64,000 nucleotides of DNA from a virus (Duplodnaviria > Caudoviricetes): positions 26,840 to 90,839 of the IMG/VR virus record IMGVR_UViG_3300032303_002515, one strand, 5' to 3'. Every line of letters begins with the position of its first letter. The first letter of the stretch is position 1. The notes below the pieces were generated by a model. The model worked only from the letters and a program-made list of their open reading frames with translations. It did no database searches and was not told the DNA's origin. Made by a program: the position numbers and the translations under genes. This document shows positions 1 to 27,749 of the stretch, one piece after another.

Positions 1-5
1 AGGCA

Positions 6-3000
6 ATGCGAACCGCAGACGCTATGGCGCGTGCTGCCATGTCGCAAAACCGCACCGGAGCGATGGCATTTAGAAATGCTGGTCGCTCTGGTAGCGGGTC
101 GTTTGGTCGCGGTGGCTCTGGAACTGGGGCCGCAGGAACGCGCGGCGCCCGCTCCTCACTAGACGATTCCGGGGCGGCTGCCCGCTCTATACCCAGCATA
201 GCAAGCATATCAAGGGCCGCGCTTGGCCTGGAGCTGTCTAAGCGCTCTGGCATGCGCAAGGCAGGCATTAGCTCGCGAAACAGACAAAGAGGAACGCCGC
301 TTGCTGCTTCAGATAGAAGCCTAATAGGACTGCCATCTGAGAAGGCATTGGATTACCGCCTGTCTTCGCGCGAGCTAGGTCGATACCTTTCTAGACTTAT
401 TGCATCGGAAACTGGCGACGTTTCATATCCATCTGAGCCGTTAGACCTTAGGAATTTTGCTTTCCGTGGCAATCGCTTTGGTCCGCCAAGGTCAAAACGG
501 AGGTCTGGCCGCTATGGCGCCCAGCAGGCAGACCTAGATCTCTTTGAGAAGGCAATAGAGCGTCAAGACATTTCTCTTCTTGAATCGGCCATTAGGGCTC
601 CGCAAGGCCGCATGAGGGAAGATATTCGGCGTCTTCCAAACTATTTGCAAACATTAATTCAGCAGGCCAGAATGGATCGCCGGCGAAGCAGCAGATTCTT
701 CCCGCAGTCCCAACCTGGCAAGCCAATGTCAGTTCACGTCCCGGGTCGTGGCTTAATGGAGTTTTCTAAGAAGTCAGGCAGGGGCGGCAGCGGCGGCAAC
801 AAAGACATTGACCGAATAGTTGGTCAAATTCTTGGCCAGGGATGGAAATTTGAAAAGCGCAAAGGCGGCCACAATGCCGTCGTTGCTCCTTCTGGTCAAA
901 AGGTATTTTACCCATCATCAGCATCAGACCGCAGGGCATTGCAAAATTTCATTTCCGAGTTGCGAAAAAAAGGTGCAATTGTTGATGGCCGAGGGTACGG
1001 CGGAAAAGAGGGCAAGGGCGGTCCGCGCGAAATGTCACGACGCTCTGGTGGCAGGTCTGTCGCCGAGACTGCATTTGGCTTTGTTCCAGACCGTCGAATC
1101 CTGGAAGCAATGCGCCGTGGTGACATGTCATTTGGCCAAGAGATTGGCGCTCAACGTCTAAACACAAAAAGACTATCCACCACTGTTTCTATGGGGACAG
1201 GAAGAAATCGAGTTCGGGGCACAGCTATTGCCATGTTCCCAGAAAACGACAGGGGGCTCAGGGGCCAATCAGGAAGAGAGGTTGGGAGAAACCTTGGTCA
1301 GGGAGACAGAAAAACTAAAAGAACTAAACTTTCTCCATATAGCCCAATGGCAGAAAAAGTATACGAGGTCCTTGGTGGAATGCTTGGGGCACCAACCCCT
1401 GCAGTTGTCAGGAGAAGGCTAACACCATTAGAGCAGCAACTGGCCACTGGCGGAAGACTGCCGCAAGTTGGCTCTTCGGCTAAGACAAACATTGGCGCAA
1501 CCCGCAGAGTCGCCTCCGGAAGATTTGAAAACCCACAAGTCCGTCAACGCCGGCCACTAAGCCGCAATGCATGGATGATCCCTTGGCTTGACGATTTTGA
1601 GCCAATGAAACGCGTACTTCGCGGTCACCCACAATTTGACGACGAAGTTAGAACGCAAGCAACTAGGCAGCTTGGCTCAACACGAGACATGCGACGCATC
1701 ATGCTCCTTGACCAAATACTTGGCCAGACAGATCGACACGGCTCAAACATGATGGTTGGAAAGGGACGAAGCGGGAAGCGAAGAATTCTTGGAATTGATA
1801 ACGAGCATGCGTTTAGCATGGGCGGCCTTAATAGGCCTATCTCTGACCTTAATAGGCAGCTAAATAATACGCCGCAATTCTCTTCATTCTCTGCGCGATA
1901 TATGCCGCGAGATGTCCCTCAGGGCAGCAGCACATTGCTGCCGTGGATGACAAACAAGGGTGGCTCTGGCCTTGCAAGAATTAAATTAACAAAGCAGGAG
2001 CAAGACGCATCTGCGCGTGAAGCAAAAGTCCTAAGGGGAATCCTTGGCGGCAAGAGGTCAATGAAGATTGTTGAAGAGTCTTTCTTGACTGCTGGCTACT
2101 CCAAGAGGGACACAGATAAGTACATGGAGACTCTGCGCACACGGCTAGAAGCTGCGGCGATTACAAGAGAAGCAGAGGCATCTTCTGGGCATAGCGACGC
2201 CGGAGATTATCGGCAAATGTTGCAAATGTCGCGCCGCTCTGGTGCGCAGAGAAGGCTTGCCGCAAGAACCAGGGCAACTGGGCGCGGGGTTATGCTTCCA
2301 CAAGACCTTCGCAGCGGAGATTTTGCTGAGTTGCCGAGACCGATTCGACTGCTTGGAGAAATGCTGCAAAGCAAAGACAGGGGAAGAAGAGCCCGCCCAA
2401 TAGAAATGGACGATGAAACCAGGGTCTCTTTGGTTTCAGGAAAAGAAATTATTCCTGGACGAGCAAGCAGAGGCTCTAAGCCTTTAATCCCGCAAAACCT
2501 TGCCGGCCGAAGCCCAGAACAAATTTTTGCTGAAGCGCTTGTGGCATCCCACAACGCCGGTGTGCGGGTTCGGGAGATCGCACCAGACCCTGATCGACTC
2601 ATTAAGGCGCAGCTTCGCGCCATGGGCGTTGGGGACCCATATGACGTTGGCGGAAAAAGGATTACTTCACGATCAGATCAAATGGCCGCAGCTCGTGCGT
2701 ATCAATTGCTTAGGCGTCAGCGATTGGGAATGGGCTCAATTGCCTCGCTGGCGCCTGGATCAGTTAACGCAAGCTCATGGTTAATGCAAATGGGCGGAGA
2801 TCAGGGCTCACGTCAGGATCTTCTTGGTGGCGCCCTTGATGAGATGAGTGGCTTTGATGCGTTTAGAGAGTTGAGCGCGGGCACCGCTGGGGCACGAAGG
2901 GATAGAAGAGCTGGTCAAAGCGGGAATCGCCGCATTGGGCTTAAGGGCGGGTTTATCGCCACTGTTCCTAATAGATTCCATGTCCCAGGCATGGGAGACG

Positions 3001-6000
3001 CTGCTGGGTTAAGAAATTTTGTTGTAGGGGCAATGACTCACAGAATGCCAGGAACGCATGAACAGGGCAAGCTTGGCGCCCTAGCCGGTCTTGGGGCTCC
3101 AGGTGTTGGAACTAGCCTTATGGCCCACGAGCTGCGTCGTCACGCGCGGGCAATCATGGAGGCCCGAAGAAGGTACCCGGCCGCCCTTGCCGCAAAATAT
3201 GGCGTATCAGTTGACGATCTTGCCGGACTCAATATGGGCGGTCGCACAGCTGCGGGTCTCAGCTTAAAAGCCAGCAACTCAGGAATGGGCCTGTACGAAG
3301 CGCTTGGATTTGAATTTAGCGATCCAAACAACATGGAAAACCGCTTTATGTCTATGGGCGGAGACAAAGTTGTTGACATGTACGGAAGAATCCGCGCAGA
3401 GATTAAAAGAGTAGAGGCCCGCCTTGCGGAGCAGGGCATTGCGTACAGCCCAATGGAGTTTGCACGTAAGTCTGGTAGCAAATCTTACCCAATGCAAGAA
3501 AAACTTGTTAGAAGGATGGGTCCAGGAGACCCAAATTATCTAGGGCAAACCGCTTTTAGATTAGGCGAAGAAGATTTGCTTGGGCCATTTACGCGCGGAA
3601 CAAGATTCTACCCCCAGAACGAAACGTATGTAGCTGGACCCCGCAAAGGACAGCCAATCCCAAGGCCAGCAGGGCACCGAGGCATTCCGTATTACCAAGT
3701 AGTGACACCTAGCGGCCTGAGAATTGACAATGTGCCGGCTGATGCTCACCGAGGGCGACTGCAAGAAATTATTGCAACTGTAGAAAGCTTCTACAAGAAG
3801 TATCCAGAACAAATGCAAGAGCTTGCTGGCCCAAGAAGTACCGGGATACGGTTTTCATACGCAAAATTGCATGGGGGCGCTACAGGCACGGCATCAATCG
3901 GTTCTGGACCAGTAAATCTAATGGATTATCTACTTACGCCAGATTCAACACACGACAAGACTGGATACTACCACGACTACTACAATTCAAAGAATCCTCG
4001 CTTTGCGGGCAAGGATGGCTTTGCTGGCAGGGCAAATAGCATACACGGCATCTTTGCTCATGAGCTCGGTCACGTAATGGCTGTTGACAAATATCAAGAA
4101 GCAATGAAGCAAAAAGGTATTGGTTTTTACGGTTATAAGCCATATGATGAGTTTGTACACGGAAGCAGAAGAGATGGCATGGGTCGCGGCGTCAGGGGCT
4201 TCCATTATGACTACAAAAAGGGCATGGCGCAGATGGCCGCGCTTGCAAATGTTGAAGAGACTACTGGCGGAAGATTAAAGCCAGAAGATTTCTATTTGCC
4301 TGGCGAAATGGACGGCAAAAGCAACGTGAACGGCGGCGTTTACAGCGGCTTTTTCCATCCTGGCAGTAAGAAACAAAAAACGATGTATGGAAGTAATAAA
4401 TTAGATTTTATGCCGGATGATGCTACCGAGCAAATCCAAATGCGGAAAATTGGCGAAATGATGTTGATGGGAAAGCAAGGACCGCTTGCCAGCGTCCTTC
4501 CAAAGCAATATAAAAATATTGATGAAGCAATGCAGGCATTGTGGAAAATTGGCGGATATGGCTCCATTAGGGGGCGAATGCATGTTGGTTCCGAGTGGAT
4601 GTCCCAAATGTTTGCAAAATGGAGCAGTCGCGCATGGGGGGCGCCAGACGCTGCCCTTGGCGGGCATCCCAATGTAGACGCAAAAAATAAACTTGGCTAT
4701 CGGGTTGCGCGCATTTTGGCAAGAAACAACCAATGGGCTGAATACAGCAAGCGCTCGGGTGGCATCGGCGGGATGCTTGGCGGTCTCTTTGGTAAGGGCA
4801 GGCCAAACATCATGCAGCAGATTACTGGCGGACAAACCTATGGGATGACGCTGCAGGACTTGCTGGGCGGAGACATTACCGGCATGGGCTCGCACAGCAT
4901 CGGCCACTGGTCTGGAGGATCTGGAAAAGAAATCCTCAACCTAAAGACTATGGCTGGAGAAATTAGACAAGTTCTTGCACAGCCGATTGGTGGGGATGCA
5001 TCGCAAGGTGGTCGATTTCCAAACAAGGCAATGGAGATCCTTGCTGGACTTCTTGGGGTGGAGACCCCGACAATTCTGGAGCGCAGCATTGGCGGCAGGA
5101 GAATGGCGATTCAGCCAATGGCTCCAGGAGAAACCGCAATTGACTTTATTAACAGATTAAGTGCTCCGCCATCAACACGAGTTCCAGTATGGGAAGACGA
5201 CCAGATCATCGGTCACTTCTCTCGGCCACTTGGTTCTGGATCAGTCGACCCAGCATTGGCACAGCAGCCCTGGCTTGCAAGCAGGGGCGGAAGGCGCATG
5301 CAGATCCTTGATCATCTTGCGCAGACATACGACCGACACGGACTTAACTACCTTCTCAATTTAGTTGACCCCAAGGGCGGCGTAGGCTCGCCTGGAAATT
5401 ATCGCGTTACTGCTATTGACCACGATCTTGCCCTTCGCCCACCAGGCAAGGGCGGAAGAAGAGTCATTGGTGGTGGCGCTGGGCCAATTGGTGTTCCCGG
5501 ACAGTTCCAAGAACACCAGATAAAACTTGCAAGGGAAGAAGCCGCTACCCTTGCGGGCATTGTAACGCGGCGCAAAGTTATAGAGCCGCAATTGCTTGAA
5601 GCATTGCGAGCAGGAGGATATAGTGAGCAAGAAGCACTCGCAACAGTCGATGCTATCTTCAGACGCGCACGTGAAGCGTTTAGGAGTCGCATGGCTGAAT
5701 CGCGGGGCGCAGCCCACCCGTCTGGGTGGGAACTCTCACGAAGGTCAGGAGGTGTCGGTATGAACGGCCTGACAAACCCCTTTGCCCAATACAGCAAGCG
5801 CAGCGGTGGAGCTGCTACTGGCACCCCATACACATCCCTGCAGACCGCCTTTGAGCAGGTAACTCTTACCGCCATCAAGAACCTGAAGGTATCTCTTGCT
5901 GGCCAAAAGATGAACCCACAGCTATTCCGCAGAAGCATTGAGTCCTTCCAGAAGACTATTCTTGACGCAGCTACGGGCCAGGGAGAGTTTGCTGGCGGTT

Positions 6001-9000
6001 CAATGCAGAAGGCGTTGAAGGGCATTGCGCCAAAAGCGCGCAAGTCCCTGATGGGCATGTTCAGCGGCATCTTGAAGGACATTGAAGACACTGGCACTGC
6101 TGCATTTGGCCGTGGCGACCTGAAAGGCATTCCTCTTCGCAAGGTGCTGTTCAGCATGCTTGGTCAAGTCCCTTCGGTCTATGCGCCAGACATTGCGCAA
6201 ATTGCCGCAAATCCAGCGTTGCAAAAGAAGAGACCAAGCGGACAAAGAGACAGAATCCCAAGCATTCGCACAATCCAATATGGCGAATCTAACCTTGCAA
6301 CCCTTGGCGGCGTTGGCATTGCCCCAGGCATGAGGCTTGCTGGATCGGCAACACTTGCCTCCCACTTGACTGACCAAGGCTATGATCCAAAGGCTTACGG
6401 CAATCTTGCCGGAATTCTGACCGACATGGCACAGAAATACTTCCCGTCCGGCATCAGAGGCGGCGGGCTATCGTTTGGTCACCCCCTAGCTAATGCAGGT
6501 GCATGGGCATACTACGAGCCACAGCGCCCAGGATATAACGTACAAAACCCTGGCCAAATTACTATGGACCTTGGCGGAGCGGGTAAGGGCGGCGTTGTAA
6601 CTATTGGCAAGGCCATGGCAACAATGGCTCACGAAATCACGCACGCCATGGTAGACGCTTCCGAGATGGAAATAGCAAAGCTTTCAGTTGGCGTAACTGA
6701 TCAAACGCAACTGCAAAAGATTCGCAAGGAAGTTGAGGCAAGACGAGGAGTTCCGTCAGCAGACAAATACCGTGCCTACTCGGGAATTTCCGGGGAATAC
6801 ATGTTTGTTCCAAAGGGCAAGCAGATTGGCGCAAAAACCATTCCGCTGGGAACCCCAGATAATCCAGAAGGTTTTAGCTATTTTGATTTGCCGAAAGGAT
6901 CAATTACAGAAAGTGAATACAAAAAGCTTAATCCGAAGGCCAGGGCGGCATACGAAAAGGCCTATGTCACTGCGGCACAAGCTGCAGCCATAGATCCAAA
7001 TGCACAGGGTCAGCATATTAATGTTCCTGGGCACTTTGGCCCGCAGGTTCGTATTCTTGAAGATGCGCAGGCAGGACTTGCCGAGTATGCGCAGATGCTT
7101 GCTGCTTCAACAAGAGTATTGCAGCCAGGAGAAACGCAGAAAAGCTTGATGCTCTCAACCCGGCAAATGAATGCCGGCGCTCGTGCAAACGCAACGGATA
7201 TTGGTGCGGTCATGCCTGGCGTTGCCGGAATTGCCAATCCGTATCAAGGCGGATTGCTTAAAGCAATGGATCTCTCGGAAACTCTTGGCGGGAAACTTCG
7301 TCCAATTGCGGAATTTGCCGCGCGCATTCAGAGAAACATGGCCGGTCAGATGGTGTCTGCTCAGGCAGCAGGTGGTCTTGACGCTCGTGACCTTGGTGGA
7401 ATGTTTGCAAAGGCTCTTGGCACGGCTATTGAGGCTACGCCAAAGACACAGCGCGCAAGCGTTCTTGAAGCCATTAGGCCAGACCGCATTCTTGATGCCG
7501 CAGTAGTTCTTGACTCTATTGGAAGAGCAAAGAATATTCCGGCTTTGACAAGAATGCTTGCGAATGCAACTGGCGCCACTGGCGCCGCGATTGTCTCTCA
7601 TGGCGTTGTTGCTTCGGACCTTAATACCGCAGGGGATGTTCAAGCTGTTGCAGAGGCAATGGGCAAGAAGCGTGGGAAGAAGCCTGCTGAGCCACCACAG
7701 CCAGCTGGCCCAGTCCAGCCAAGCCCGCAGGTTGCAGCCATTGCGCCAAAGGGCTATGACTTGTTAACGCAATTAACAGAGATTCTTTCACTTGGTGTGG
7801 TTGGCGGCGGCAAAGAAAATATTACCTTGCGCAATCAAGTAAGGGCTCAGGCCGGTCTCCCAAATAGGCCGCTGGCGGGAACGCAACTTGCTGCAAGTAG
7901 CCTAACAGGCTCAGCAATTGCCGCACTCGCCGCACAGTATCCAGAGCTTTTGCCATTTGTTCGCGAGTACAGACCGGATCATCCGCTTCTTGGCGCGCAA
8001 CCAGGAACAAAAGTTCCAGCAACAAAGCGCGGACGTCGCGGCGGACCAGTGGGGCCAACTGTCTCCGGGTCAACAGGCGTACAGCCATATGCCGACACAG
8101 CAAGCAACGATTATTACCAAAATATTGCAGATAGCATCTTTGCTTCACGCGTTGAGGACGCATTTAAGATGTTTGGCGGTTCCGGTGGATTTGGCTATAA
8201 CGCACGTGGTCTTGGAAACCGCATGAACGTTTTGCGAGATGTTATGCCAGAAGATCAACTACAGGGCGGAATTGACAAGCTAAAGCAATTTGGCTCAACC
8301 ATGAAAGATGCCTTCCTGAATTCAAAGCCAGTCGTTGGGTTGTTGCAAGACTTTGACGATGCAATGCTCAGGGCTGCGGACGGATCGCTGGACTTTAGCA
8401 AATCACTTGATGCGGCAACCGCGAGTAGCGGTGGGTTGGTAAATCAACTGAAAGAAACGGTAAAACTTGCCGTTGCATTCGTTCTTACACAAAACGCAGC
8501 TAATGCTATTTACCGATCTATTAGCCACCTTTCTTCAGGCTTTATTCAGTTCAACCAAGCGCTTGAAGACGCCAAGGTAGGTTTCTCAACACTGTTCTAC
8601 AACGCAGGCGATTCTATGGGCGTTGCCGAGGGTCGCGCAACCGGAATGATTGAACGTTTGAAGGAATTTGCTAACGTCACGCCGTTTTACTTCACGCAGC
8701 TGCAAGAAGCAGCTGTCCGAATGCAAGCGTTTGGCCTTGACATTGGGCAAGTTCTGCAAAGAGACCCAAATACGGGCGAGCTTGTTGGTTACATTAAAAA
8801 CATTGGAGACGCGGTTGCCGCACTTGGCGGTGGCGACGAAAAGATCATGCGCATTACGTATGCGCTTGGTCAGATGAACTCTGCTGGTCGCGTATATCAA
8901 AACGACATGATGCAGCTGGCAAACGCCGGTATTGCTGGATACGAAATCCTTGCTGAAGCTCTTATTAATGAGCTTGAAGCAAAAGGCAAGGATATGACTA

Positions 9001-12000
9001 ACGATGATAAGAAAATTCTTAATGATTTGTACACAAATCGCGTAGAGGCAATTAGAAAACTTACAACTTCGGGAAGAATCTCTGGTAAGGCCTCAGCCGC
9101 TGCAATTCTTTCTGGGCTTGGCGAAAAATACGGCGGCGGAATGGAGCGGCTGTCAAAGACAATGACTGGTGCGCTAAGCACAGTCTCAGACATGTCTCAG
9201 TCACTTGTAGCAACAATGACTGGACCGCTTTATAACGCAATACGAGACCTTGTTGTTCAATTTGCCGGAGTTCTACAAGATCCAAAAACAAGCGCAATGT
9301 TTGTCGAAATGGGCCAAAAGTTGCACGGATTTGCTGCAACAATTAAAGAAGCGATTCCTGCAACAATAGCAACGATTGTTAATGCATTTACGTACCTTGG
9401 TGGAATTATTGCCAAGGTATTTGGCGGATCCGGAACAAAGAGCGCTATAGATCTACTAAGATCTGGTTTGCAAACTGTTGGAGATTTGCTGTCTAATAAC
9501 GTAGTGCGAGCGGCGTTGCTTGCAAGCGTTGCGCTAAAAGCAATGATGTCAGTTGTTTCTGCAAACCCGCTGGTTGCAACAGTTGGCGTTGTTCTTGCCG
9601 CACTTGGCGCGCTACGCCAAGCGTACGAAACAAATTTCCTTGGTTTTGCTGATACCGTTGACAACGCAATGGCTCCATTGCAAAAAATGGGTCCAGATAT
9701 TGCCGAATCTATCATTCCTGCATTAAAAGAACTTATTGCAGCCGCAGCCCAAGTAATTGGTGGCGGATTAGTCATAGCCCTAAAAGCAGCCCTTCCAATC
9801 ATCTCAGCATTGGCTGGTGCGCTAGGCGGAATGGCCGGAATTCTTGAAAAACTAGCTCCGCTTATTGGCGCATTTATGGGTGCATGGATTGTTAAAAAGG
9901 TTGCCATTGAAGGTATGGCTATCTTGTTTACTAAACTGCAAAACGCAGCAGCCTCTGCAGCGATGTCTGCTGGAGTTGCTGGCGTCAAGATGGGTGCATG
10001 GGGGAAGCAGGGCGCCTCATATTATTCTCAAAGAATTCCAGTACGGCAAACAGAAGTTCAAACACCATTTGGCCCAATGAACGTCTGGCAGTCTGCCGCG
10101 CCAGAGCAAGGCGCGGGAGCGGTAATGGGATCTGCGCCCGGGGTAAAAATTGGCGACGCAGAAAAAGCAAGAGGCGTTATGCCTCAGCCATTCCAAAAGG
10201 TATATACAGTACCAGAACATTTAAGAAACATTCCGCTTCCATACTACACAAACCCAGGAGTTTTGTCTCCAGAAACTGGTGGCCTTCTTGGTCTTGACCC
10301 AGAATCTGGAACGGCCATTGGCGCAAGACCTGAGAACATGGTGCTGCGCACCAGGACTCTTGGCGAGCTTGCGGCTATGCAGGGTGGCGGACTTCAGCCA
10401 GAGCAAATAGTTCATGCCCAAAGAGCGGCAAAAGCGCTTACCGGCCTGCAGCAAGCAGACCTTGTAACAATGGATGAAAGCGGAACAATTACCGCAACCG
10501 AAAAGGGCAAAAAGCTTTTGCGCGACAAGATGGAAAATGCGCGAGCACGGCGAGCATTGGAAAACGATATTTCAGTTCAAGAGCAAATAAAAAGAGATCA
10601 GGAAGAAGTTGCAAGAATCAAGCAAGCCAACAAAGAAGGCAAAAAGGTTATTGGCTATGTCCCTCGCGGAATTCCTGACTATGCCAGAACACCAGCACAG
10701 CTTTCCCCAACAGAAGAAGTGCAAATGCTTCAGGGAATGCGAAGTCAAACATTTGGACAAGCGTTTGATTACAACTACACGGAAGAACTTGCCAAGAGGC
10801 ATGCACAAGCCAGAGCGGCTGGAAGATTTAGAACCGGTCTTGATGGATCAGAAATAACAAACATTGGGCTTACTGGAAGATTGCGAGCGCGCGGTTCGGC
10901 AACTATTCAGACAATAAAAGACATGTTTGCCATGGGCGGCAAAACAGAAATGGCTGGAAACGTTGCCGATAAATTTAGCGGTCTTACAATGGCAGCAAGC
11001 GGTCTAATGATGGGTTTTGAAGCCCTTGGATCAGCCGTAGGAATTAATACAAAAGACCTTCAAACGTTCTCAATGGTGCTAATGGGCTTGTCCATTGTCT
11101 CCAAAGCTGTTGCTGCTGCTATGGCAGCAATTAGTGCGGCGGGTGGGGTAAAGCAAGCCCTTAGCGGTTTAGTGAGTTCAATTGGTGGCCCTGTTGGGGC
11201 CGCAATTGCAGCAGCTATGGCTGCGGCAATATTTGTTTTTAGTGAAGTTTCTAAGCACGATGCGGAAGCTCAAAAGTATCGCGATCAGAGAAAAGCGGAC
11301 AAGGATCGAGAGCGAGCAATCAAACTTGGCTGGAGCGACAGCGGTCTTGGGTATATGGCTCCAAAGGTAATTGGCGGACAGGCTCAATACGATTTGTACG
11401 GTTTCTCAAATGGAAAAACCCTTGGTGGAAATGTTGACCAAGCAAAAATTGATGAAATGGTTTCTCAGGGGCTATTTAAGAAAGAAACAACAGCCCTTCC
11501 AGGAAAGTTTACATATACGCCAACCGAGGCGGGAAGGGCCGCTGGATACATTAGCGCAAGGGGCGTAACTCAGGCGGTTGTTCCAACTTTTACAAAGGCA
11601 CCAACTGCCGTTGTCCAAAGGGTGGACAATCTTATGACCAGCTCTACTGGCGGTTTACTTGAAGCACCCCCAGCGGAAAGAATGGGCCAAACAAATGCAG
11701 ATCAGTTGCAAACCCTAGCAAGCCTTGGGGTTGTAAGCGAAGATTTTGTCACGCAACTTGTAAAAGATATTAGGGCTGAGGACAATAGGGGTTTTAATGC
11801 CATGATTCCACTTGTTGGAATGGCATGGAGAAACCCAAGCGATGTCCTTACGCAACGATATGGTTCGTCGTATACAAACGCTATTGACAACAATATGGGT
11901 GTTAATACGCTAAATCCAGAAAAACTGCTAGGTAATCTCCTTTCTTCAAATAATGTTGGCAGAGCAATTCTTGATTCTACTGGTCTTGGCAAATATTCAT

Positions 12001-15000
12001 TCACGGGAACTTATGCAAAAGAAGGCGTTCCAAACGAGGCAATATTCTCTACTTCTGAATCGTTAAAACTTCTTAATGATAGTTTAGATGACGCAAGCAA
12101 AGCACTAGATGAAGCTAAGAAAAAACTTGCCAAGCTATTTGATCCATTTGCTACCGCTTTTGATCAACTTATGGGCAGGGCAAAAGAGCTTTTGCAAAAA
12201 GAATTTGACCTTGAACAGCAACAGCTTAATGCAGAAATGCAAGACGCTTTGTATAACGTTGATGCGCTATACAACGGCGAAACTATGCGTCTTGGAGTTC
12301 TTGAAGAGCAATATGGATTGCTGCAAGAACAGCGAGCGGAGCAAGAAAAGCTTAACGCTCTTAATGACGCGCAGGAAAATGCTGCACGGGCAACGCTTGG
12401 TTTGTTTGACGCTCAGCAAGACCCGATTCAAGCTGCGATTGCAGCTCGCGAAGCTGCTCAAAAATTGCAAAAAGAAGAACAAAACTATCAGATGCAACAA
12501 ATGGCCGAGGCTATCGACCAGGCAAAAAATAGTGTTCAATATCAGCAAACAACAACGTATTACGATGAAAAGAAAGCTACGCTTACCGCTGACCAGCAGG
12601 AGCGATCTCGCCGCCTAGAGGAACGCGCGCAGCAACTCCTTAAGGACATCCAAGAGGGAAAGATTACTGTTCAAGCAGCGCAAGAAGAGTTTATGGCAAT
12701 GTTTGGCGATGCTGGCTTGCCACTCGACTCAATTCTTGAAACTGGTCAGTTCCAAGGTCAAGCACTTGCGGATATTATGGGCACTGCATTTGCTACAAGG
12801 TTCCAAGAGCTTGGCGACATTATTTCTACCACAATGGCAGACGTTGTTAAGGCTGGTATTGCGGCGGCGGCAGCAGAAGCAAACGTTGACGCTATCGTAG
12901 AGCAGATTGACAAAATTGAAAACAAGAAAGACAAGATTAAAAAGAAAGACGTTGAGGCTGAGCGAGAAAGATTAAAGCAAGTCCTTAACACTTCTCGCGC
13001 ATCACTCCTTGAATACGCAACAAGAAAAGATGTTATTGGGACAGATGCATCGACCAAGGCTATTGGCGCTGCAAACAGCATGGAAAAATACATTCAAGAT
13101 TTGCAGGCAATGGATTTTTCAAAATATGGAGATTTCCTTACCCGTGCTCAATTCGGCACAGAGTTTGATGCTATTTATAAACTATTTGATAGCGTTTACA
13201 GCGAATTTGGTGCACTGCAAACAGTTGCTCTTACTTTGACCGACAGCTTTGACAGAAATCCAACATCGCCTGTTATTCGACCCAGAAAGCCAAAGCCAAC
13301 ATCTCCACCAGCTGGATATACCAACGACACAGGAGCCTGGTACGAAAGGGGCGATAATTGGGTTTGGTATGACCTTATGGGCAACGCAATTACCTCTGTG
13401 CCAGCGCGCGCAAAGGGCGGACCAGTTGGTGCTGGCCAGTATCTCGTCGGGGAGCGTGGGCCAGAAATGCTCACCATGTTCCCAGACGGTGGTGGCTATG
13501 TCACGCCAAACCACGAGCTTCCAAGTAGCGTTCAATCCTCTGCTGGCGCACTTAAGGCGGGCAAGCAGGGACGATACTACGGCGGCCTGGTTGGTGTAAC
13601 TGGTCGAGCTGACGGCGGCTACGTCGGTATAAATCGAGACCCCTGGAACTATGACGCCCCATCAGAAAGCTTCACAAGAAGCCTGGGCTTCATTGGCGAC
13701 CCTATGGGCTTCCAGCAGCACTCGTTCAACGATTTTATGAATAGCCAGATCAACACAAAGACTCAGAAGAATGAACTAGCTCGTAGGTTCCCAAAGCTAT
13801 ACGCTCGCTATGTAGCAGGCAATATTCGCAGTAACGGGCCAAGGGGTTGGAGCCCAGTCAGGGGTCGAGCCGATGGCGGATATCTTGGGGGATGGGATTC
13901 TTGGGATAGGCCACAGCCAACCGAGACGCCAATTCCGGACACAACGGGTGGCCACGGAATAGATAGCTGGGGCGCGCCAATCGCAGACGAAAATCTTGTT
14001 AAGGGCATCCCCTCGGGAAGGGTTCATTTCCTCGGCGACCTAGACCCTATTCAAAAAATTTGGAACAAACTTGGCCCAAACAGTGGGAAGGTTGGCGGAA
14101 GCGGAAATAAAATTCGTTTTGACTGGGGCGACGTAATTATCTCAGATGATTACGCAAGGACCGGTCAGACGGTTGACCTAGCAGCCCTATCGGAAGCTGC
14201 AAGGTTAAGCCTTGCCGCAGCGCCGGAAAACATGTTTGACCCAAGCGATAGAACAAAAAGAGTCACAATCGTTGTTGTGCCAGATTTAGGGGATGGGGTA
14301 GTGGGTCGAGTAAAATACCCGACCGGACCAAGAAAAAACCACATTTACCTTAGCCCTCAGGGGACCAGCTCTCAGGGTCAATCATGGGATTTTAACAAGC
14401 GAGGAGATGCCAACACTAGCGGGTATTTAGAAACAATTGCCCACGAAACCGGCCATTTAGTTCATTCAAGAAAACACGGGACGCCGCTACTCAGGGGGCG
14501 AGGAATCTTTTCTCCGCTTGTTAGCTTGTTGAGCCTTGGAACACAGGGCGGCATAGGCTTGCCTATGGGAATCATAGAGAGAGTTGAAAAGAAAAATCCA
14601 ACCCTAGCGTTAGCGCTGGCAAAGATGTTCCGACTTCCCGGGCTTGCGGTAAATACTCAGGGCCGGCTTGCTGACCTGAATAGGGACGCTTTTGTGCGGT
14701 CGGCGGCGGACCAAGGCAGAGATGTTCTAAATTGGGCAGAGTTTTCTGGAAAGAGTCCTGCTGTAAGTTTCTATGGAATGGGTTCGCCAGCAGAAAATTA
14801 CGCAGATTCATTTAAGTATCACGTATTGGATCAAGCTCCGGGGAGGCATGGGGAAACCCTTGGGGAATCCCTTCTTGGTTCCGAGCCCCGCCTGGACGAA
14901 CCAAGATTCAAGTCTGGAACCGGATGGGATCAGGTTCAAATAAATGACCCAGAAGCACAATATAAAAAAGATTTGCTGGAATGGAGAAAAAGAAGAGCCG

Positions 15001-15941
15001 TTGCCGGAACTTCTAAAATCTTAGCAGTAAGAGAGGGATGGCAAAACATTCACGACAGCATAAACAGAAAGTCAACTTTCTCCGTTGACGGAAAAGACGC
15101 TGCGTATAGGGATGTGGCTGGCGGACAGCGGCCCGATTCCTTTACGCCAACCTATAGGTCTAGCTCGGGATCTAGCGCAATAGGCGCTGGGTTGCAAGTT
15201 TTTGACAAAAATATGAACACAAAGAAAGGCAACGTCATTGCTTCTATTGCTGCTGATATTGGCCAAATGGCAGCATCTGGCCAGTGGGATTTTGGCAGAC
15301 TTATCTTTAACAGAATCTTTGATTTGCTTGGCGCGATACCAATAATTGGCGGCAAGCTTTCGATGATTGCTGGTCTTGCTACAACGCTACTTAGCGGTGG
15401 CGACGTTGGCCGAGCCGGAGTCGGCATGATTGGCTCTTTGCTTGGCGAATTCCTTGGGTCCATGGCGCTTGCCCCAATTGGCATGCCGTGGCTTGGCGGA
15501 TTTGTAGGCAGCATGATTGGCGGCTTCTTGGCTGACGCGATTTATACTAATATTATAAATCCAGCTGCAGCCTCAAAGCCAAACGTAATGGTTGGCGGCG
15601 GCAAATATGGTGTATATAACCCTGGTCCGAACATGCCGTTTGCACCAGGGCGGGCTTTTGGTGGGTCAATTGGCAAGAACATGCCATACCTTGTTGGTGA
15701 GCGTGGGCCAGAGCTCATGATCCCTGACAGCAGTGGCTACATGTTGCCAAATACTGGCTTGCGGGCGTTGCAGGCTCCAGGGGACTTGCGAATGGCTGGC
15801 GGAGGCGCGACAATCAATGCGTCCGTCACCATTAACAACCCTGTTGTGTCGGATGCCGCAGATATTGATAAACTTGCCGAGAAGGTAAGTTCGGCACAGG
15901 TACGCACCCTCCGTGCGGCAGGCTTCATGAGGCCAAGTTGA
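6..15941 (+). CDS. Giant tape measure protein with N- and C-terminal enzymatic modules (5,311 aa; possibly 5'-truncated by window edge)
   Basis: TMP N-terminal-type motif (FNQALEDAKVGF...LKEFANVTPF...IGDAVAALGGG...YALGQMNSAGRV...QLANAGI) at ~8.54-9.25 kb; Ala/Gly-rich amphipathic and coiled-coil core to ~13.2 kb; typical TMP C-terminal RAxGG...LVGERGPE motifs; lies directly upstream of tail-tip genes. The frame is open upstream of the ATG at 6. Confidence 0.9.
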   Translation: MRTADAMARAAMSQNRTGAMAFRNAGRSGSGSFGRGGSGTGAAGTRGARSSLDDSGAAARSIPSIASISRAALGLELSKRSGMRKAGISSRNRQRGTPLAASDRSLIGLPSEKALDYRLSSRELGRYLSRLIASETGDVSYPSEPLDLRNFAFRGNRFGPPRSKRRSGRYGAQQADLDLFEKAIERQDISLLESAIRAPQGRMREDIRRLPNYLQTLIQQARMDRRRSSRFFPQSQPGKPMSVHVPGRGLMEFSKKSGRGGSGGNKDIDRIVGQILGQGWKFEKRKGGHNAVVAPSGQKVFYPSSASDRRALQNFISELRKKGAIVDGRGYGGKEGKGGPREMSRRSGGRSVAETAFGFVPDRRILEAMRRGDMSFGQEIGAQRLNTKRLSTTVSMGTGRNRVRGTAIAMFPENDRGLRGQSGREVGRNLGQGDRKTKRTKLSPYSPMAEKVYEVLGGMLGAPTPAVVRRRLTPLEQQLATGGRLPQVGSSAKTNIGATRRVASGRFENPQVRQRRPLSRNAWMIPWLDDFEPMKRVLRGHPQFDDEVRTQATRQLGSTRDMRRIMLLDQILGQTDRHGSNMMVGKGRSGKRRILGIDNEHAFSMGGLNRPISDLNRQLNNTPQFSSFSARYMPRDVPQGSSTLLPWMTNKGGSGLARIKLTKQEQDASAREAKVLRGILGGKRSMKIVEESFLTAGYSKRDTDKYMETLRTRLEAAAITREAEASSGHSDAGDYRQMLQMSRRSGAQRRLAARTRATGRGVMLPQDLRSGDFAELPRPIRLLGEMLQSKDRGRRARPIEMDDETRVSLVSGKEIIPGRASRGSKPLIPQNLAGRSPEQIFAEALVASHNAGVRVREIAPDPDRLIKAQLRAMGVGDPYDVGGKRITSRSDQMAAARAYQLLRRQRLGMGSIASLAPGSVNASSWLMQMGGDQGSRQDLLGGALDEMSGFDAFRELSAGTAGARRDRRAGQSGNRRIGLKGGFIATVPNRFHVPGMGDAAGLRNFVVGAMTHRMPGTHEQGKLGALAGLGAPGVGTSLMAHELRRHARAIMEARRRYPAALAAKYGVSVDDLAGLNMGGRTAAGLSLKASNSGMGLYEALGFEFSDPNNMENRFMSMGGDKVVDMYGRIRAEIKRVEARLAEQGIAYSPMEFARKSGSKSYPMQEKLVRRMGPGDPNYLGQTAFRLGEEDLLGPFTRGTRFYPQNETYVAGPRKGQPIPRPAGHRGIPYYQVVTPSGLRIDNVPADAHRGRLQEIIATVESFYKKYPEQMQELAGPRSTGIRFSYAKLHGGATGTASIGSGPVNLMDYLLTPDSTHDKTGYYHDYYNSKNPRFAGKDGFAGRANSIHGIFAHELGHVMAVDKYQEAMKQKGIGFYGYKPYDEFVHGSRRDGMGRGVRGFHYDYKKGMAQMAALANVEETTGGRLKPEDFYLPGEMDGKSNVNGGVYSGFFHPGSKKQKTMYGSNKLDFMPDDATEQIQMRKIGEMMLMGKQGPLASVLPKQYKNIDEAMQALWKIGGYGSIRGRMHVGSEWMSQMFAKWSSRAWGAPDAALGGHPNVDAKNKLGYRVARILARNNQWAEYSKRSGGIGGMLGGLFGKGRPNIMQQITGGQTYGMTLQDLLGGDITGMGSHSIGHWSGGSGKEILNLKTMAGEIRQVLAQPIGGDASQGGRFPNKAMEILAGLLGVETPTILERSIGGRRMAIQPMAPGETAIDFINRLSAPPSTRVPVWEDDQIIGHFSRPLGSGSVDPALAQQPWLASRGGRRMQILDHLAQTYDRHGLNYLLNLVDPKGGVGSPGNYRVTAIDHDLALRPPGKGGRRVIGGGAGPIGVPGQFQEHQIKLAREEAATLAGIVTRRKVIEPQLLEALRAGGYSEQEALATVDAIFRRAREAFRSRMAESRGAAHPSGWELSRRSGGVGMNGLTNPFAQYSKRSGGAATGTPYTSLQTAFEQVTLTAIKNLKVSLAGQKMNPQLFRRSIESFQKTILDAATGQGEFAGGSMQKALKGIAPKARKSLMGMFSGILKDIEDTGTAAFGRGDLKGIPLRKVLFSMLGQVPSVYAPDIAQIAANPALQKKRPSGQRDRIPSIRTIQYGESNLATLGGVGIAPGMRLAGSATLASHLTDQGYDPKAYGNLAGILTDMAQKYFPSGIRGGGLSFGHPLANAGAWAYYEPQRPGYNVQNPGQITMDLGGAGKGGVVTIGKAMATMAHEITHAMVDASEMEIAKLSVGVTDQTQLQKIRKEVEARRGVPSADKYRAYSGISGEYMFVPKGKQIGAKTIPLGTPDNPEGFSYFDLPKGSITESEYKKLNPKARAAYEKAYVTAAQAAAIDPNAQGQHINVPGHFGPQVRILEDAQAGLAEYAQMLAASTRVLQPGETQKSLMLSTRQMNAGARANATDIGAVMPGVAGIANPYQGGLLKAMDLSETLGGKLRPIAEFAARIQRNMAGQMVSAQAAGGLDARDLGGMFAKALGTAIEATPKTQRASVLEAIRPDRILDAAVVLDSIGRAKNIPALTRMLANATGATGAAIVSHGVVASDLNTAGDVQAVAEAMGKKRGKKPAEPPQPAGPVQPSPQVAAIAPKGYDLLTQLTEILSLGVVGGGKENITLRNQVRAQAGLPNRPLAGTQLAASSLTGSAIAALAAQYPELLPFVREYRPDHPLLGAQPGTKVPATKRGRRGGPVGPTVSGSTGVQPYADTASNDYYQNIADSIFASRVEDAFKMFGGSGGFGYNARGLGNRMNVLRDVMPEDQLQGGIDKLKQFGSTMKDAFLNSKPVVGLLQDFDDAMLRAADGSLDFSKSLDAATASSGGLVNQLKETVKLAVAFVLTQNAANAIYRSISHLSSGFIQFNQALEDAKVGFSTLFYNAGDSMGVAEGRATGMIERLKEFANVTPFYFTQLQEAAVRMQAFGLDIGQVLQRDPNTGELVGYIKNIGDAVAALGGGDEKIMRITYALGQMNSAGRVYQNDMMQLANAGIAGYEILAEALINELEAKGKDMTNDDKKILNDLYTNRVEAIRKLTTSGRISGKASAAAILSGLGEKYGGGMERLSKTMTGALSTVSDMSQSLVATMTGPLYNAIRDLVVQFAGVLQDPKTSAMFVEMGQKLHGFAATIKEAIPATIATIVNAFTYLGGIIAKVFGGSGTKSAIDLLRSGLQTVGDLLSNNVVRAALLASVALKAMMSVVSANPLVATVGVVLAALGALRQAYETNFLGFADTVDNAMAPLQKMGPDIAESIIPALKELIAAAAQVIGGGLVIALKAALPIISALAGALGGMAGILEKLAPLIGAFMGAWIVKKVAIEGMAILFTKLQNAAASAAMSAGVAGVKMGAWGKQGASYYSQRIPVRQTEVQTPFGPMNVWQSAAPEQGAGAVMGSAPGVKIGDAEKARGVMPQPFQKVYTVPEHLRNIPLPYYTNPGVLSPETGGLLGLDPESGTAIGARPENMVLRTRTLGELAAMQGGGLQPEQIVHAQRAAKALTGLQQADLVTMDESGTITATEKGKKLLRDKMENARARRALENDISVQEQIKRDQEEVARIKQANKEGKKVIGYVPRGIPDYARTPAQLSPTEEVQMLQGMRSQTFGQAFDYNYTEELAKRHAQARAAGRFRTGLDGSEITNIGLTGRLRARGSATIQTIKDMFAMGGKTEMAGNVADKFSGLTMAASGLMMGFEALGSAVGINTKDLQTFSMVLMGLSIVSKAVAAAMAAISAAGGVKQALSGLVSSIGGPVGAAIAAAMAAAIFVFSEVSKHDAEAQKYRDQRKADKDRERAIKLGWSDSGLGYMAPKVIGGQAQYDLYGFSNGKTLGGNVDQAKIDEMVSQGLFKKETTALPGKFTYTPTEAGRAAGYISARGVTQAVVPTFTKAPTAVVQRVDNLMTSSTGGLLEAPPAERMGQTNADQLQTLASLGVVSEDFVTQLVKDIRAEDNRGFNAMIPLVGMAWRNPSDVLTQRYGSSYTNAIDNNMGVNTLNPEKLLGNLLSSNNVGRAILDSTGLGKYSFTGTYAKEGVPNEAIFSTSESLKLLNDSLDDASKALDEAKKKLAKLFDPFATAFDQLMGRAKELLQKEFDLEQQQLNAEMQDALYNVDALYNGETMRLGVLEEQYGLLQEQRAEQEKLNALNDAQENAARATLGLFDAQQDPIQAAIAAREAAQKLQKEEQNYQMQQMAEAIDQAKNSVQYQQTTTYYDEKKATLTADQQERSRRLEERAQQLLKDIQEGKITVQAAQEEFMAMFGDAGLPLDSILETGQFQGQALADIMGTAFATRFQELGDIISTTMADVVKAGIAAAAAEANVDAIVEQIDKIENKKDKIKKKDVEAERERLKQVLNTSRASLLEYATRKDVIGTDASTKAIGAANSMEKYIQDLQAMDFSKYGDFLTRAQFGTEFDAIYKLFDSVYSEFGALQTVALTLTDSFDRNPTSPVIRPRKPKPTSPPAGYTNDTGAWYERGDNWVWYDLMGNAITSVPARAKGGPVGAGQYLVGERGPEMLTMFPDGGGYVTPNHELPSSVQSSAGALKAGKQGRYYGGLVGVTGRADGGYVGINRDPWNYDAPSESFTRSLGFIGDPMGFQQHSFNDFMNSQINTKTQKNELARRFPKLYARYVAGNIRSNGPRGWSPVRGRADGGYLGGWDSWDRPQPTETPIPDTTGGHGIDSWGAPIADENLVKGIPSGRVHFLGDLDPIQKIWNKLGPNSGKVGGSGNKIRFDWGDVIISDDYARTGQTVDLAALSEAARLSLAAAPENMFDPSDRTKRVTIVVVPDLGDGVVGRVKYPTGPRKNHIYLSPQGTSSQGQSWDFNKRGDANTSGYLETIAHETGHLVHSRKHGTPLLRGRGIFSPLVSLLSLGTQGGIGLPMGIIERVEKKNPTLALALAKMFRLPGLAVNTQGRLADLNRDAFVRSAADQGRDVLNWAEFSGKSPAVSFYGMGSPAENYADSFKYHVLDQAPGRHGETLGESLLGSEPRLDEPRFKSGTGWDQVQINDPEAQYKKDLLEWRKRRAVAGTSKILAVREGWQNIHDSINRKSTFSVDGKDAAYRDVAGGQRPDSFTPTYRSSSGSSAIGAGLQVFDKNMNTKKGNVIASIAADIGQMAASGQWDFGRLIFNRIFDLLGAIPIIGGKLSMIAGLATTLLSGGDVGRAGVGMIGSLLGEFLGSMALAPIGMPWLGGFVGSMIGGFLADAIYTNIINPAAASKPNVMVGGGKYGVYNPGPNMPFAPGRAFGGSIGKNMPYLVGERGPELMIPDSSGYMLPNTGLRALQAPGDLRMAGGGATINASVTINNPVVSDAADIDKLAEKVSSAQVRTLRAAGFMRPS
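780..1028 (+). other. HicA-like RNase domain inside TMP
   Basis: DIDRIVGQILGQGWKFEKRKGGHNAVVAPSGQKVFYPSSASDRRALQNFISELRKKG matches the HicA pattern (GW..R..G.H, V..P...SD.RA..N...L...G); His at 870-872. Confidence 0.7.
1050..2222 (+). other. HipA/PI3K-PI4K-like kinase domain 1 inside TMP
   Basis: AEKVYEVLGGMLGAPTP; LLDQILGQTDRHGSNMMV (DRH 1731-1739); IDNEHAF (1794-1814). Confidence 0.75.
2244..3455 (+). other. GNAT acetyltransferase-like module inside TMP
   Basis: Acetyl-CoA loop GVGTSLM (3102-3122) and motif B LSLKASNSGMGLYEALGF (LYEALGF 3291-3311). Confidence 0.6.
3477..4739 (+). other. Zincin metallopeptidase module 1 inside TMP
   Basis: IFAHELGHVM (HELGH 4059-4073), downstream SEWMSQMF as possible third-ligand helix. 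Confidence 0.6.
4761..5729 (+). other. HipA/PI3K-PI4K-like kinase domain 2 inside TMP
   Basis: NKAMEILAGLLGVETP; ILDHLAQTYDRHGLNYLL (DRH 5331-5339); IDHDLAL (from 5415); C-terminal helices resemble kinase 1. Confidence 0.75.
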
Positions 15942-27300: not shown

Positions 27301-27749
27301 CTGCTGGCTGGCGACTTACTGGCGTGCAAGCAGTGGGAACTGTTGCGGCATATTGGAGCGCCAACGCAACAACTGCGTATCTTGGCCGCCTAAGCTCTTC
27401 GCGTAGGTATAAAGAGAATATTTCTTATACCGATTTTGACATTGAGGACATTGTAAAGTTGCGCCCAGCAAACTTCACAGTCAAAGAAGAATTTAGAGCC
27501 AACATAGAAGACGAAGACGGTAATCCAACTGGCGAAAAGGAACCGGCAAAAACCAAACTGGGTATTATTGCAGAAGATGGCGAAGATAATCCTGCTTGGG
27601 AAGATCTTGTTATCAAAAACGAAGATGGTCAAACAGATTCATGGGCCTACCAGCACATGGGCGTTGTGCTCCTTTCGGCAGTGCGCACTCTTTACGCCCA
27701 AAACAAGGCGTTAGAGGCCCGAATCGCAGAACTAGAGGCGCGTGAATAA
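24378..27749 (+). CDS. Tail fibre/receptor-binding protein with C-terminal intramolecular chaperone (peptidase S74-like)
   Basis: Beta-rich Gly/Thr/Ser body; C-terminal SSRRYKENI...LRP...LGIIAED...LLSAVRTLYAQNKALEARIAELE. Confidence 0.85.
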   Translation: MVMQRISGKKKRTVFRSDPVSSAGQSVSGLSIDGPNITIVNPAPTQDSSGKVVSAGTPILSVGVNEATINASYIKTGVLDANLMRTGQIQTIASWNSRSYGSDLDAIEAQQGFTGGYVYLQDWSTVSENTVYAEFAPWGTYESGTTTATVGASTMFSVGDYVRVTGAYFGDPDQLTRSVGFNANVGIIDQQDGPLGYGEIVAVDTVGTGVTYTVTSTSKSTLDSGLVAKSQQYIPTMSKANQILSIDAQRISGPNPAGIYSVFVTTSMPHDFVVGDYIELASCGPVYSGVWYVVSTPSNNTFVFRHRFNLDFGAVISSESLPSIDAPVAIRVRKAYSVTSNGDLTSASLNIRTAKTQDGGEPVFQVLNDSIVIRKPDGSILLGVTAGGSFIDIGTVTADEVIVGGDINANQVVRAGNYPNAISPTFQGIWAGNATPASAEFSVDLDGNLVASNANITGTVRASSGQIGGFTIGATALTATNIVANSSGYVSVGSGNNVAVMSGADANYRFWAGNSNAATANFVVDKAGNITARSFSLTGIGSISAINAITVSDVLGAGVVTNAKIATVSADKIQTNTLTLSGLSAAAITSTNFVVTNTGSVTASDITLSNSDSVTVGASQVGSINVKPQPVGSTNVGGALFTVWSNAKQNSAVNTVSYSSFNISTITGGTTVGATWTVTTTTAHDIGVGQYVSFTGLSGGTGLSAWSQVCTQNGAVRVTASSSSTTFQFKSPYAFAAPTTSQPKVYGYKTLTLVAPGGVFIADAINSTLSPGMIGVGSIALGSNFESIGGDSATSGIDGTPKPADGEIVFTSATTNPIYDGGGNLYSSDGATTINTSGAFTAGSHITGDRLYANGYLYTYHGGLYLRGGTVNPTIYFRNSANTDLGNITHNGTYLQVSDRMDVAGALNSSSTGNFSGLITATGGVTANGVTLNGTYDLNAYGSGSSIYINQTAGIYFTDTSKNVQSNLYYVTGSAAGWRLTGVQAVGTVAAYWSANATTAYLGRLSSSRRYKENISYTDFDIEDIVKLRPANFTVKEEFRANIEDEDGNPTGEKEPAKTKLGIIAEDGEDNPAWEDLVIKNEDGQTDSWAYQHMGVVLLSAVRTLYAQNKALEARIAELEARE

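Follow-up and report, generated by a model that had tools for sequence, protein, structure and literature searches.

A giant tape measure gene with two kinase-like modules

The DNA analyzed here is a window of 64,000 nucleotides, the right-hand 64 kb of a 90,839-bp virus record from IMG/VR (IMGVR_UViG_3300032303_002515) that carries direct terminal repeats, and the subject of this report is a pair of kinase-like modules encoded within the giant tape measure protein (TMP) gene at its left end. No phage isolate has a terminase more than 29% identical to that of this virus; therefore, we consider the virus to be an uncultivated, deeply branching tailed phage. Both modules are contained in a single open reading frame (ORF) on the plus strand (window 6..15941; 5,311 aa from the ATG at position 6). 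This frame is open further upstream, with 5,438 aa open in the genome as a whole, and the likely start is a GTG at window coordinate -366, 372 nt before position 6, which is accompanied by a GAGGGAA ribosome-binding site (read in L013) and would yield a protein of 5,435 aa. Pfam TMP_3 matches the ORF at 44.8 bits (cut-off 41), as do several PHROG tape-measure families (E 1e-8 to 1e-11). The gene is preceded by genes for a head protease, the major head protein, an adaptor, and a tail protein and is followed by giant ORFs and tail-fibre genes. As judged from sequence, the ORF, at 5,311 or 5,435 aa, is a genuine TMP.

Each kinase-like module is bordered by linkers with the consensus [EQ]-hydrophobic-[SA]-[KR]-[KR]-S-G, a motif found eight times in the first 1,940 aa of the TMP against 0.002 expected from shuffles. 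The two modules represent two of about eight cassettes located between the N-terminal helical part of the TMP and its length-measuring core (Table 1). An earlier note on this DNA had described linker-bounded modules within one TMP, a description that the linkers and the TMP_3 match bear out.

Table 1. Features of the tape measure gene and its kinase-like modules (window positions; aa numbered from the ATG at position 6)
Feature	Position	Strand	Evidence
Giant tape measure protein gene	1..15941, start at -366 outside the window	+	ORF list, Pfam TMP_3, PHROG
Linker EMSRRSG, upstream border of module 1	1029..1049	+	Sequence, orthologues, motif count
Kinase-like module 1 (aa 344-746), linker SRRSG to linker SRRSG	1035..2243	+	PF00454, unit HMM, hhalign, ESM, dN/dS
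Module 1 motif AEKVYEVLGGMLGAPTP, aa 449-465	1350..1400	+	Sequence; inside BLASTP segment
Module 1 putative catalytic loop DRHGSN (D576, N581), within LLDQILGQTDRHGSN	1731..1748	+	Sequence, HMM
Module 1 IDN (D598), putative equivalent of the metal-binding DFG Asp; GIDNEHA, aa 597	1794..1802	+	Sequence
Module 1 GYS in C-terminal helices; AGYS, aa 697	2094..2102	+	Aligns with module 2 GYS (alignment A1, hhalign)
Linker QMSRRSG, downstream border of module 1	2223..2243	+	Sequence, orthologues, motif count
Linker EYSKRSG, upstream border of module 2	4740..4760	+	Sequence, orthologues, motif count
Kinase-like module 2 (aa 1581-1915), linker SKRSG to linker SRRSG	4746..5750	+	Unit HMM, hhalign, model, ESM, dN/dS
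Module 2 motif AMEILAGLLGVETP, aa 1675-1688	5028..5069	+	Sequence, BLASTP segment; predicted helix (model residues 93-103)
Module 2 putative catalytic loop DRHGLN (D1776, N1781), within ILDHLAQTYDRHGLN	5331..5348	+	Sequence, HMM, orthologues
Module 2 IDH (D1805), putative equivalent of the metal-binding Asp; AIDHDLA, aa 1804	5415..5423	+	Sequence, orthologues
Module 2 GYS in C-terminal helices; GGYS, aa 1871	5616..5624	+	Sequence, model, hhalign
Linker ELSRRSG, downstream border of module 2	5730..5750	+	Sequence, orthologues, motif count

Homology of the modules and their family assignment

Three motifs shared by the modules, A.E[VI]L.G.LG..TP, the DRHxxN catalytic loop, and ID, together with AGYS helices, had been reported in the earlier note, and all are present where it had placed them, with GGYS as the module 2 form of AGYS. 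Its positions for the DRH codons (1731 and 5331, exactly 3,600 nt apart) are also correct. A fixed repeat unit of 3,600 nt was considered and rejected; the spacing is a coincidence, because it differs among the orthologues (3,648, 3,663, and 3,573 nt). When the phage loops DRHGSN and DRHGLN are compared with 23 non-phage units of the same module family, they align to the family's invariant columns with a posterior probability of 9 or *. The D, R, H, and N columns of the loop are kept in 22-23 of the 23 non-phage units and in all orthologues, and the ID column is invariant in all 23 units and in the phage modules. The A.E[VI]L.G.LG..TP motif corresponds to the family's helix-C/LG junction, and AEKVYEVLGGMLGAPTP and AMEILAGLLGVETP are candidates for this junction of the N-lobe, with a putative helix-C assignment; hhalign pairs AMEILAGLLGVETP of module 2 with the rE...lG of the non-phage units, of which 22 of 23 keep the G of "LG".

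A pairwise alignment, proposed in the earlier note as a check, finds the two modules homologous. BLASTP of module 1 against module 2 returned one segment spanning all three motifs (E 5e-6, 25% identity, 164 aa), and hhalign of the two orthologue profiles aligned 129 columns at E 3.4e-5, a stretch that begins at the catalytic loop and takes in the AGYS helices; the significance of both comparisons means that the modules are similar beyond chance. Across the alignments and profile searches, modules 1 and 2 share homology with one another and with the modules of a rare, PF00454-positive family.

PF00454 (PI3_PI4_kinase; curated cut-off 27.1 bits) is the only Pfam family matched by the phage modules. 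Module 1 scores 24.4 bits, under the cut-off (E 3e-5), at the catalytic and activation loop, and its score in the window and three orthologues stays at 24.4-25.2 bits, with profile positions 131-176 matched every time. In the window, module 2 is without a Pfam match, and in two orthologues it shows faint PF00454 matches of 16.4 bits (E 0.009) and 11 bits at the same profile positions as module 1. When both modules are summed, the whole orthologous protein P0002 passes PF00454 at 33.2 bits. In the 5,311-aa protein (P0001), a hidden Markov model (HMM) built from the 23 non-phage units only (the unit HMM) has just two hits, one of 47.3 bits at aa 530-610 and one of 19.5 bits at aa 1760-1812; among 3,000 shuffled decoys, the highest score was 5.6 bits. 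Aligned with the non-phage units by hhalign over 226-292 columns, module 1 reached 97.6% (E 1.5e-11) and module 2 reached 92.7% (E 5.9e-8). When a profile of both modules was searched against the PDB, every hit was a kinase of the PI3K/PI4K family, with Tel1 first (E 0.0016) and PI4KA and Mec1 after it. An ESM feature search placed PF00454-bearing clusters near module 1 (0.95) and module 2 (0.93), with one HipA_2 cluster (0.93) among the look-alikes of module 1. A search of NCBIfam gave no match, nor did phmmer searches of the PDB sequences with module 1, module 2, and the distant relative P0005 (described below).

These results divide the "HipA/PI4K-like" label of the earlier note. Its PI3K/PI4K side is upheld by the unit HMM and the PF00454-positive relatives, and its HipA side is not: at E up to 1-10, neither HipA_C (PF07804) nor HipA_2 (PF20613) gave a Pfam match to module 1, module 2, or their orthologues, and HipA_2 was matched only by the distant relatives P0005 (32.6 bits) and P0006 (31.1 bits). 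The kinase-like assignment of the modules is well supported at the level of sequence. Taken singly, module 1 very probably has a PI3K/PI4K-like fold, and module 2 probably has one as well.

Predicted fold

The AlphaFold inputs were shallow, with 11-12 alignment rows and without the repeat units of distant relatives. The module 1 model matches only generic helical hairpins and no kinases. The module 2 model (m6ed085b1466e; pTM, the predicted template modeling score, 0.49) is best in its C-terminal helices, where the predicted local distance difference test (pLDDT) score is 76-84, and its catalytic region scores 50-68. When VIA-align was applied to the Foldseek candidates for this model, the top nine chains were all type II PI4Ks (Z 7.2-8.0), with about 130 residues aligned at 3.6-3.9 A and 8-12% identity to the solved chains; CotH, PI4KIII-beta, PI3Ks, and HipA stood below PI4KII in the candidate list. 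A Foldseek-independent comparison with 48,161 representative chains placed atypical kinases at all of ranks 1-14, with 130-200 residues aligned, and this list includes PI4KII-alpha (Z 7.5), CotH (Z 6.7), PI3KC2-alpha, CtkA, Fam20, Tel1, actin-fragmin kinase, ATM, PI3K-delta, Vps34, and HipA. Kinase hits are not a default outcome of these comparisons, because the poor module 1 model returned none. The predicted structure therefore provides coherent but weak evidence for a kinase fold in module 2.

Conservation, the N-lobe, and the ATP-binding residues

At least five related viral contigs retain the two modules together with all eight linkers, at identities of 78-97%, and DRHxxN is kept in both modules of all orthologues. 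The pairwise ratio of nonsynonymous to synonymous substitution rates (dN/dS) is 0.11-0.17 for module 1 and 0.10-0.25 for module 2, and every sub-region is constrained, the N-terminal halves included. With values of 0.10-0.25 across sub-regions, both modules are therefore functional proteins.

The 23 non-phage units have a PI4KII-like N-lobe, G..N/K...[VF]KP...E...LG..[LV]P, with the beta3 Lys in 22 and the helix-C Glu in 19 of them. MAFFT alignment A4 (both modules) and hhalign (module 2) pair the family stretch GG..K.I..L...[IV]VKP[YS] with the phage N-lobes, a pairing without statistical support; the counterpart in A4 is RGQSGREVGRNL...TKLSPY for module 1, and that of module 2 is SGGSGKEILNL...VLAQPI. 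By alignment, the catalytic Asp and Asn and the metal-binding Asp are kept in both modules, and the ATP-anchoring Lys-Glu pair has candidate placements only. The earlier claim that both copies keep the catalytic residues thus stands for the C-lobe (DRHxxN and ID) and is not borne out for the N-lobe, where the Lys and Glu are not assignable.

Several results weigh against reading the two stretches as kinases. Neither module by itself reaches the PF00454 cut-off, confident alignment of the phage modules is limited to the catalytic half (about 50-80 residues), and an HMM of the N-lobe only, built from the non-phage units, found no match in the phage protein. Both AlphaFold models are poor (pLDDT 38 for module 1 and 45 for module 2), Foldseek of the module 2 model against the PDB returned nothing significant (top chain PI4KII-alpha, E 0.76), and Z values of 7.5-8.0 fall in the range that VIA-align calls "middling." In the best, low-support alignments of the N-lobe, the beta3 Lys column is occupied by Ser in module 1 (TKLSPY) and by Gln in module 2 (VLAQPI).

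The short confident alignment, the poor models, and the sub-threshold Pfam scores could be attributed to a short convergent motif (DRHxxN...ID) in helical TMP sequence that has no kinase fold. We consider this very improbable, as the unit HMM parts both sites from the 3,000 decoys by a wide margin, the hhalign matches extend well past the loop to the column counts given above, the 14 best-ranked chains for the module 2 model are all atypical kinases, the ESM feature search independently points to the same families, and the AGYS helices and LG motif are shared beyond the catalytic loop. The reading that we adopt takes each stretch to be a genuine, diverged domain that possesses the catalytic core of the PI3K/PI4K-like atypical kinase superfamily, and we hold it with evenly balanced confidence.

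Because the canonical ATP-anchoring Lys is seemingly lost, one or both modules could instead be pseudokinases, could have an altered chemistry on a kinase fold (e.g., AMPylation or glutamylation), or could be binding or scaffold domains only. Kinase folds with such other chemistry include SelO, which carries out AMPylation, and SidJ, which carries out glutamylation. This explanation gains from the contrast between the Lys of 22 of the 23 non-phage units and the Ser and Gln that the best alignments give for the phage modules, which are identical in all orthologues, and from an N-lobe too diverged for HMM detection; moreover, purifying selection is a sign of function, which need not be kinase activity. 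However, pseudokinases usually lack at least one of the catalytic Asp, the Asn, and the metal-binding Asp, and all three are intact in both modules and in all orthologues. The "loss" of the Lys may also be a misalignment, because the N-lobe alignment is without statistical support, and two conserved lysines are close by: Lys441, two residues before the Ser of module 1, and Lys1647 (LNLKT), twelve residues before the Gln of module 2. Some active kinases, such as WNK, take the Lys from another strand. We therefore regard a pseudokinase or altered-chemistry explanation as somewhat unlikely and retain the reading of diverged kinase domains in what follows.

A rare family of relatives and the origin of the two copies

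An exhaustive phmmer search with module 1 against 1.84 billion cluster representatives found only 8 proteins or clusters, namely, one orthologous TMP and seven distant proteins of 684-3,184 aa (P0003-P0009). The seven distant relatives carry one to five copies of a G[QN]xDRHxxN...ID[NH] module, most of them with 2-5 tandem copies. PF00454 is passed by six of the seven (P0003-P0006, P0008, and P0009; 57-184 bits summed over the copies), and the single-copy P0007 scores 23.9 bits, under the cut-off. In P0007, an N-terminal eCIS_core domain (DUF4157) with HELSH is combined with the kinase-like module at the C terminus; P0006 and P0008 begin with a NUDIX domain, and P0005 has DUF4347. P0008 (L014:10001-14032) is encoded on a 168-kb metagenome contig, where its neighbors are unannotated ORFs and one GGDEF protein. 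Judging from these architectures, P0003-P0009 may constitute an undescribed family of multi-kinase effector proteins. Further searches added little: tblastn of module 1 against 50,697 phage records, word-indexed protein searches with module 2 at near and longer lengths, genome contig scans with alignment A1 and P0008, and a viral contig scan with P0003 all gave no match, and a profile search with alignment A1 found only P0007 and P0010. An alignment of the whole giant proteins (A2) was discarded, as its fragments were scattered.

In a maximum-likelihood tree of 33 units and 216 columns, the copies inside P0003, those inside P0005, and those inside P0009 group together, which indicates in situ tandem duplication in these three proteins. 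The two phage modules sit on long branches (1.8 and 2.5) that join at a polytomy. Forcing them into a joint clade costs 0.78 log-likelihood units (approximately unbiased [AU] test, p 0.445), which neither rejects nor shows such a clade; the duplication of a module that the earlier note had proposed is therefore not borne out. Tandem in situ duplication of the phage modules as a demonstrated event was likewise rejected, being clear only for the P0003, P0005, and P0009 copies. A duplication within the TMP that gave rise to modules 1 and 2 is possible, and the shared SG[RK]E[VI]..NL and AGYS motifs lead us to lean slightly toward it.

The cassette array and neighboring genes

The first ~200 residues of the TMP (window -366 to 236; L013:17474 onward), located before the first linker, are helical TMP-like sequence; therefore, the array is an insertion before the TMP core rather than an N-terminal extension. 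Among the eight linker-bounded segments within the first 1,940 aa are the two kinase-like modules, an HExxH module, and a segment with a phrog_2089 match. The linker, conserved and dibasic, has the look of a processing site. The full linker motif was sought in the remaining proteome as a clue to a protease and is absent from every other ORF of the 90.8-kb genome.

The short linker-bounded module at window 765-1049 (aa 254-348) matches phrog_2089 (E 3.8e-9) and phrog_3655, two families without an assigned function, and by eye its pattern (GWKFEKRKGGHNAV...LRKKG) looks HicA-like. Three HExxH motifs are present in separate parts of the TMP: HELGH at aa 1352 (position 4059), HEITH at aa 2209 (6630), and HETGH at aa 4813 (14442). 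No Pfam family matched any of the three sites at E up to 1. As candidate modules of the zincin type, they might process the linkers.

Elsewhere in the genome, the TMP gene is directly followed by two giant ORFs (window 15938-24376, 2,812 aa, and 24378-27749, 1,123 aa), for which no Pfam match was found at E 0.001 and whose products presumably belong to the distal tail or baseplate, as proteins of an unfamiliar type. A subtilase gene (Peptidase_S8, E 4e-24; phrog_3677 "protease," E 3e-44) adjoins the terminase gene on the minus strand (window 38741-39748), and its product is a candidate processor of virion proteins. Also on the minus strand, neighboring genes at window 47416-49331 encode a GDP-mannose 4,6-dehydratase (443 bits) and an NAD-dependent epimerase, a pair that looks like a GDP-fucose-type sugar pathway carried by the phage. 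Upstream and outside the window, a 672-aa protein (L013:8648-10663) matches both phrog_80 (head maturation protease) and phrog_3636 ("DNA binding protein," E 1e-23), an unusual fusion placed just before the major head protein gene.

Proposed function and delivery

If the modules are kinases, they would transfer phosphate from ATP to a hydroxyl, and their target would most likely be a host protein, because bacteria, to our knowledge, generally lack phosphoinositides and because the superfamily holds many protein kinases. They would travel fused to the TMP, which would leave the tail ahead of the DNA and enter the envelope, and a protease would free them at the linkers. The presence of two diverged copies suggests two different targets. 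Whether at least one module is an active phosphotransferase we judge to be equally balanced between yes and no, and the same even judgment applies, separately, to delivery of the modules into the host. Delivery by the virion, substrate divergence, and an analogy to T7 gp0.7, as proposed in the earlier note, are still inferences. By analogy, an effector role would be supported by the HicA-like segment (phrog_2089) and the HExxH modules in the array, as well as by the eCIS_core fusion in P0007. Delivery has a difficulty of its own: by our own reasoning, globular domains of 330-400 aa would have to unfold or sit outside the tail-tube lumen to travel with the TMP.

Two other roles for active kinases were considered. 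The modules could be lipid or small-molecule kinases that act on envelope lipids or precursors at entry and thereby help the TMP form the DNA channel. The TMP of siphophages inserts into the envelope during ejection, the top structural matches of module 2 are lipid kinases, and the sole Pfam family matched is PF00454. Set against this are the same lack of phosphoinositides in bacteria, the protein kinases in the same fold list within a Z of 2 (PIKKs, HipA, CotH, Fam20, CtkA, and actin-fragmin kinase), and the fact that no membrane-binding element was identified in the modules; we find such a role quite improbable. In another scenario, the kinases would work in the producing cell or on the virion, phosphorylating structural proteins or the TMP itself during assembly in a CotH-like manner. 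That CotH is the second-best structural match would be consistent with this scenario, as would the poor fit of modules of this size in the tail-tube lumen (our own reasoning) and the phage genes for a head maturation protease and for an S8 subtilase, enzymes by which the array could be removed in the course of assembly. It is nevertheless improbable, because the other effector-type cassettes in the same TMP (HicA-like and zincin-like HExxH) fit cargo better, and the related module of P0007 sits behind a domain that marks eCIS cargo (PMC8213781).

We thus return to delivery into the host as the role considered here. In its fullest form, the TMP would deliver two diverged PI4K-like kinases, released at the linkers, ahead of the genome; these would belong to a rare atypical-kinase family arrayed 2-5 times in giant injected or secreted proteins, including eCIS cargo, and the replacement of the Lys would point to non-canonical nucleotide binding or a new chemistry. 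With all of its parts taken together, this scenario is unlikely.

Comparison with known systems

Type II PI4K (PI4KII-alpha/beta; PF00454; PDB 4pla, 4hnd, and 8a5x) has in common with the modules a D-R-x-x-x-N loop followed by an I-D-N/H-G-type metal-binding Asp. No other structure matches the module 2 model as well (Z 7.5-8.0), and the non-phage relatives have its type of N-lobe ([VF]KP...E...LG..[LV]P). In contrast to it, the phage modules are below the Pfam cut-off, have an N-lobe that cannot be aligned, and are set in a phage structural protein without lipid context. CotH, the atypical protein kinase of the Bacillus spore coat (PDB 5jd9/5jda) and second structural match (Z 6.7), is bacterial and phosphorylates structural proteins; however, no CotH Pfam match was found, the structural match is weaker than that of PI4KII, and CotH is a stand-alone protein, whereas the phage modules are cassettes. 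The catalytic loop of HipA is D-x-H-x-x-N. HipA (PDB 3dnu, 2wiu, and 5k98) belongs to the same superfamily and appears far down in the fold lists (Z 5.7-5.9). It is a plausible functional analogue, because it is a protein kinase directed at the bacterial cell, but no HipA P-loop motif or HipB partner was seen; a HipB-like gene was not searched for, and the modules are internal to the 5,435-aa ORF.

The nearest concept is that of the polyvalent proteins of phages and conjugative elements, in which many unrelated effector domains, kinases included, are predicted to be codelivered with DNA and to modify host proteins (PMC5512222; Iyer et al. 2017). The TMP array likewise places many unrelated effector-type domains in one polypeptide. 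Kinases of the polyvalent proteins form a distinct Ser/Thr/Tyr-type clade without the C-terminal subdomain (PMC5512222), whereas the phage modules match PF00454 instead of Pkinase, and what they retain is the catalytic core of the C-lobe. Tape measure proteins have no occurrence in PMC5512222, and the carrier here is a TMP with a conserved linker peptide. In the toxins of extracellular contractile injection systems (eCIS), an N-terminal DUF4157/eCIS_core domain marks the cargo of phage-tail-like injection particles (PMC8213781; Geller et al. 2021). P0007 displays this toxin architecture, with N-terminal eCIS_core and HExxH and the C-terminal kinase-like module. In contrast, the phage TMP has no eCIS_core match, and its cargo would be fused to the TMP rather than being a separate protein. 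The T7 kinase gp0.7 is made after infection, is not carried by the virion, and belongs to a different kinase class. It phosphorylates host proteins (cited in PMC5512222), and no sequence relation between it and the phage modules was found. In the literature that we searched, a TMP carrying a PI3K/PI4K-like kinase is not reported.

Should the modules prove active and be delivered, host proteins would be modified within seconds of adsorption, before phage gene expression, and the tail ruler would serve as the vehicle. Were this true, the idea of polyvalent proteins would extend to TMPs and to a kinase class not described there. The finding of 8 clusters among 1.84 billion, with tandem arrays of 2-5 copies and one eCIS fusion, would point to a dedicated lineage of effector kinases that databases have barely touched. 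With a possible replacement of the Lys, intact catalytic and metal-binding residues, and purifying selection, the two modules would be good test cases for non-canonical kinase or pseudokinase chemistry.

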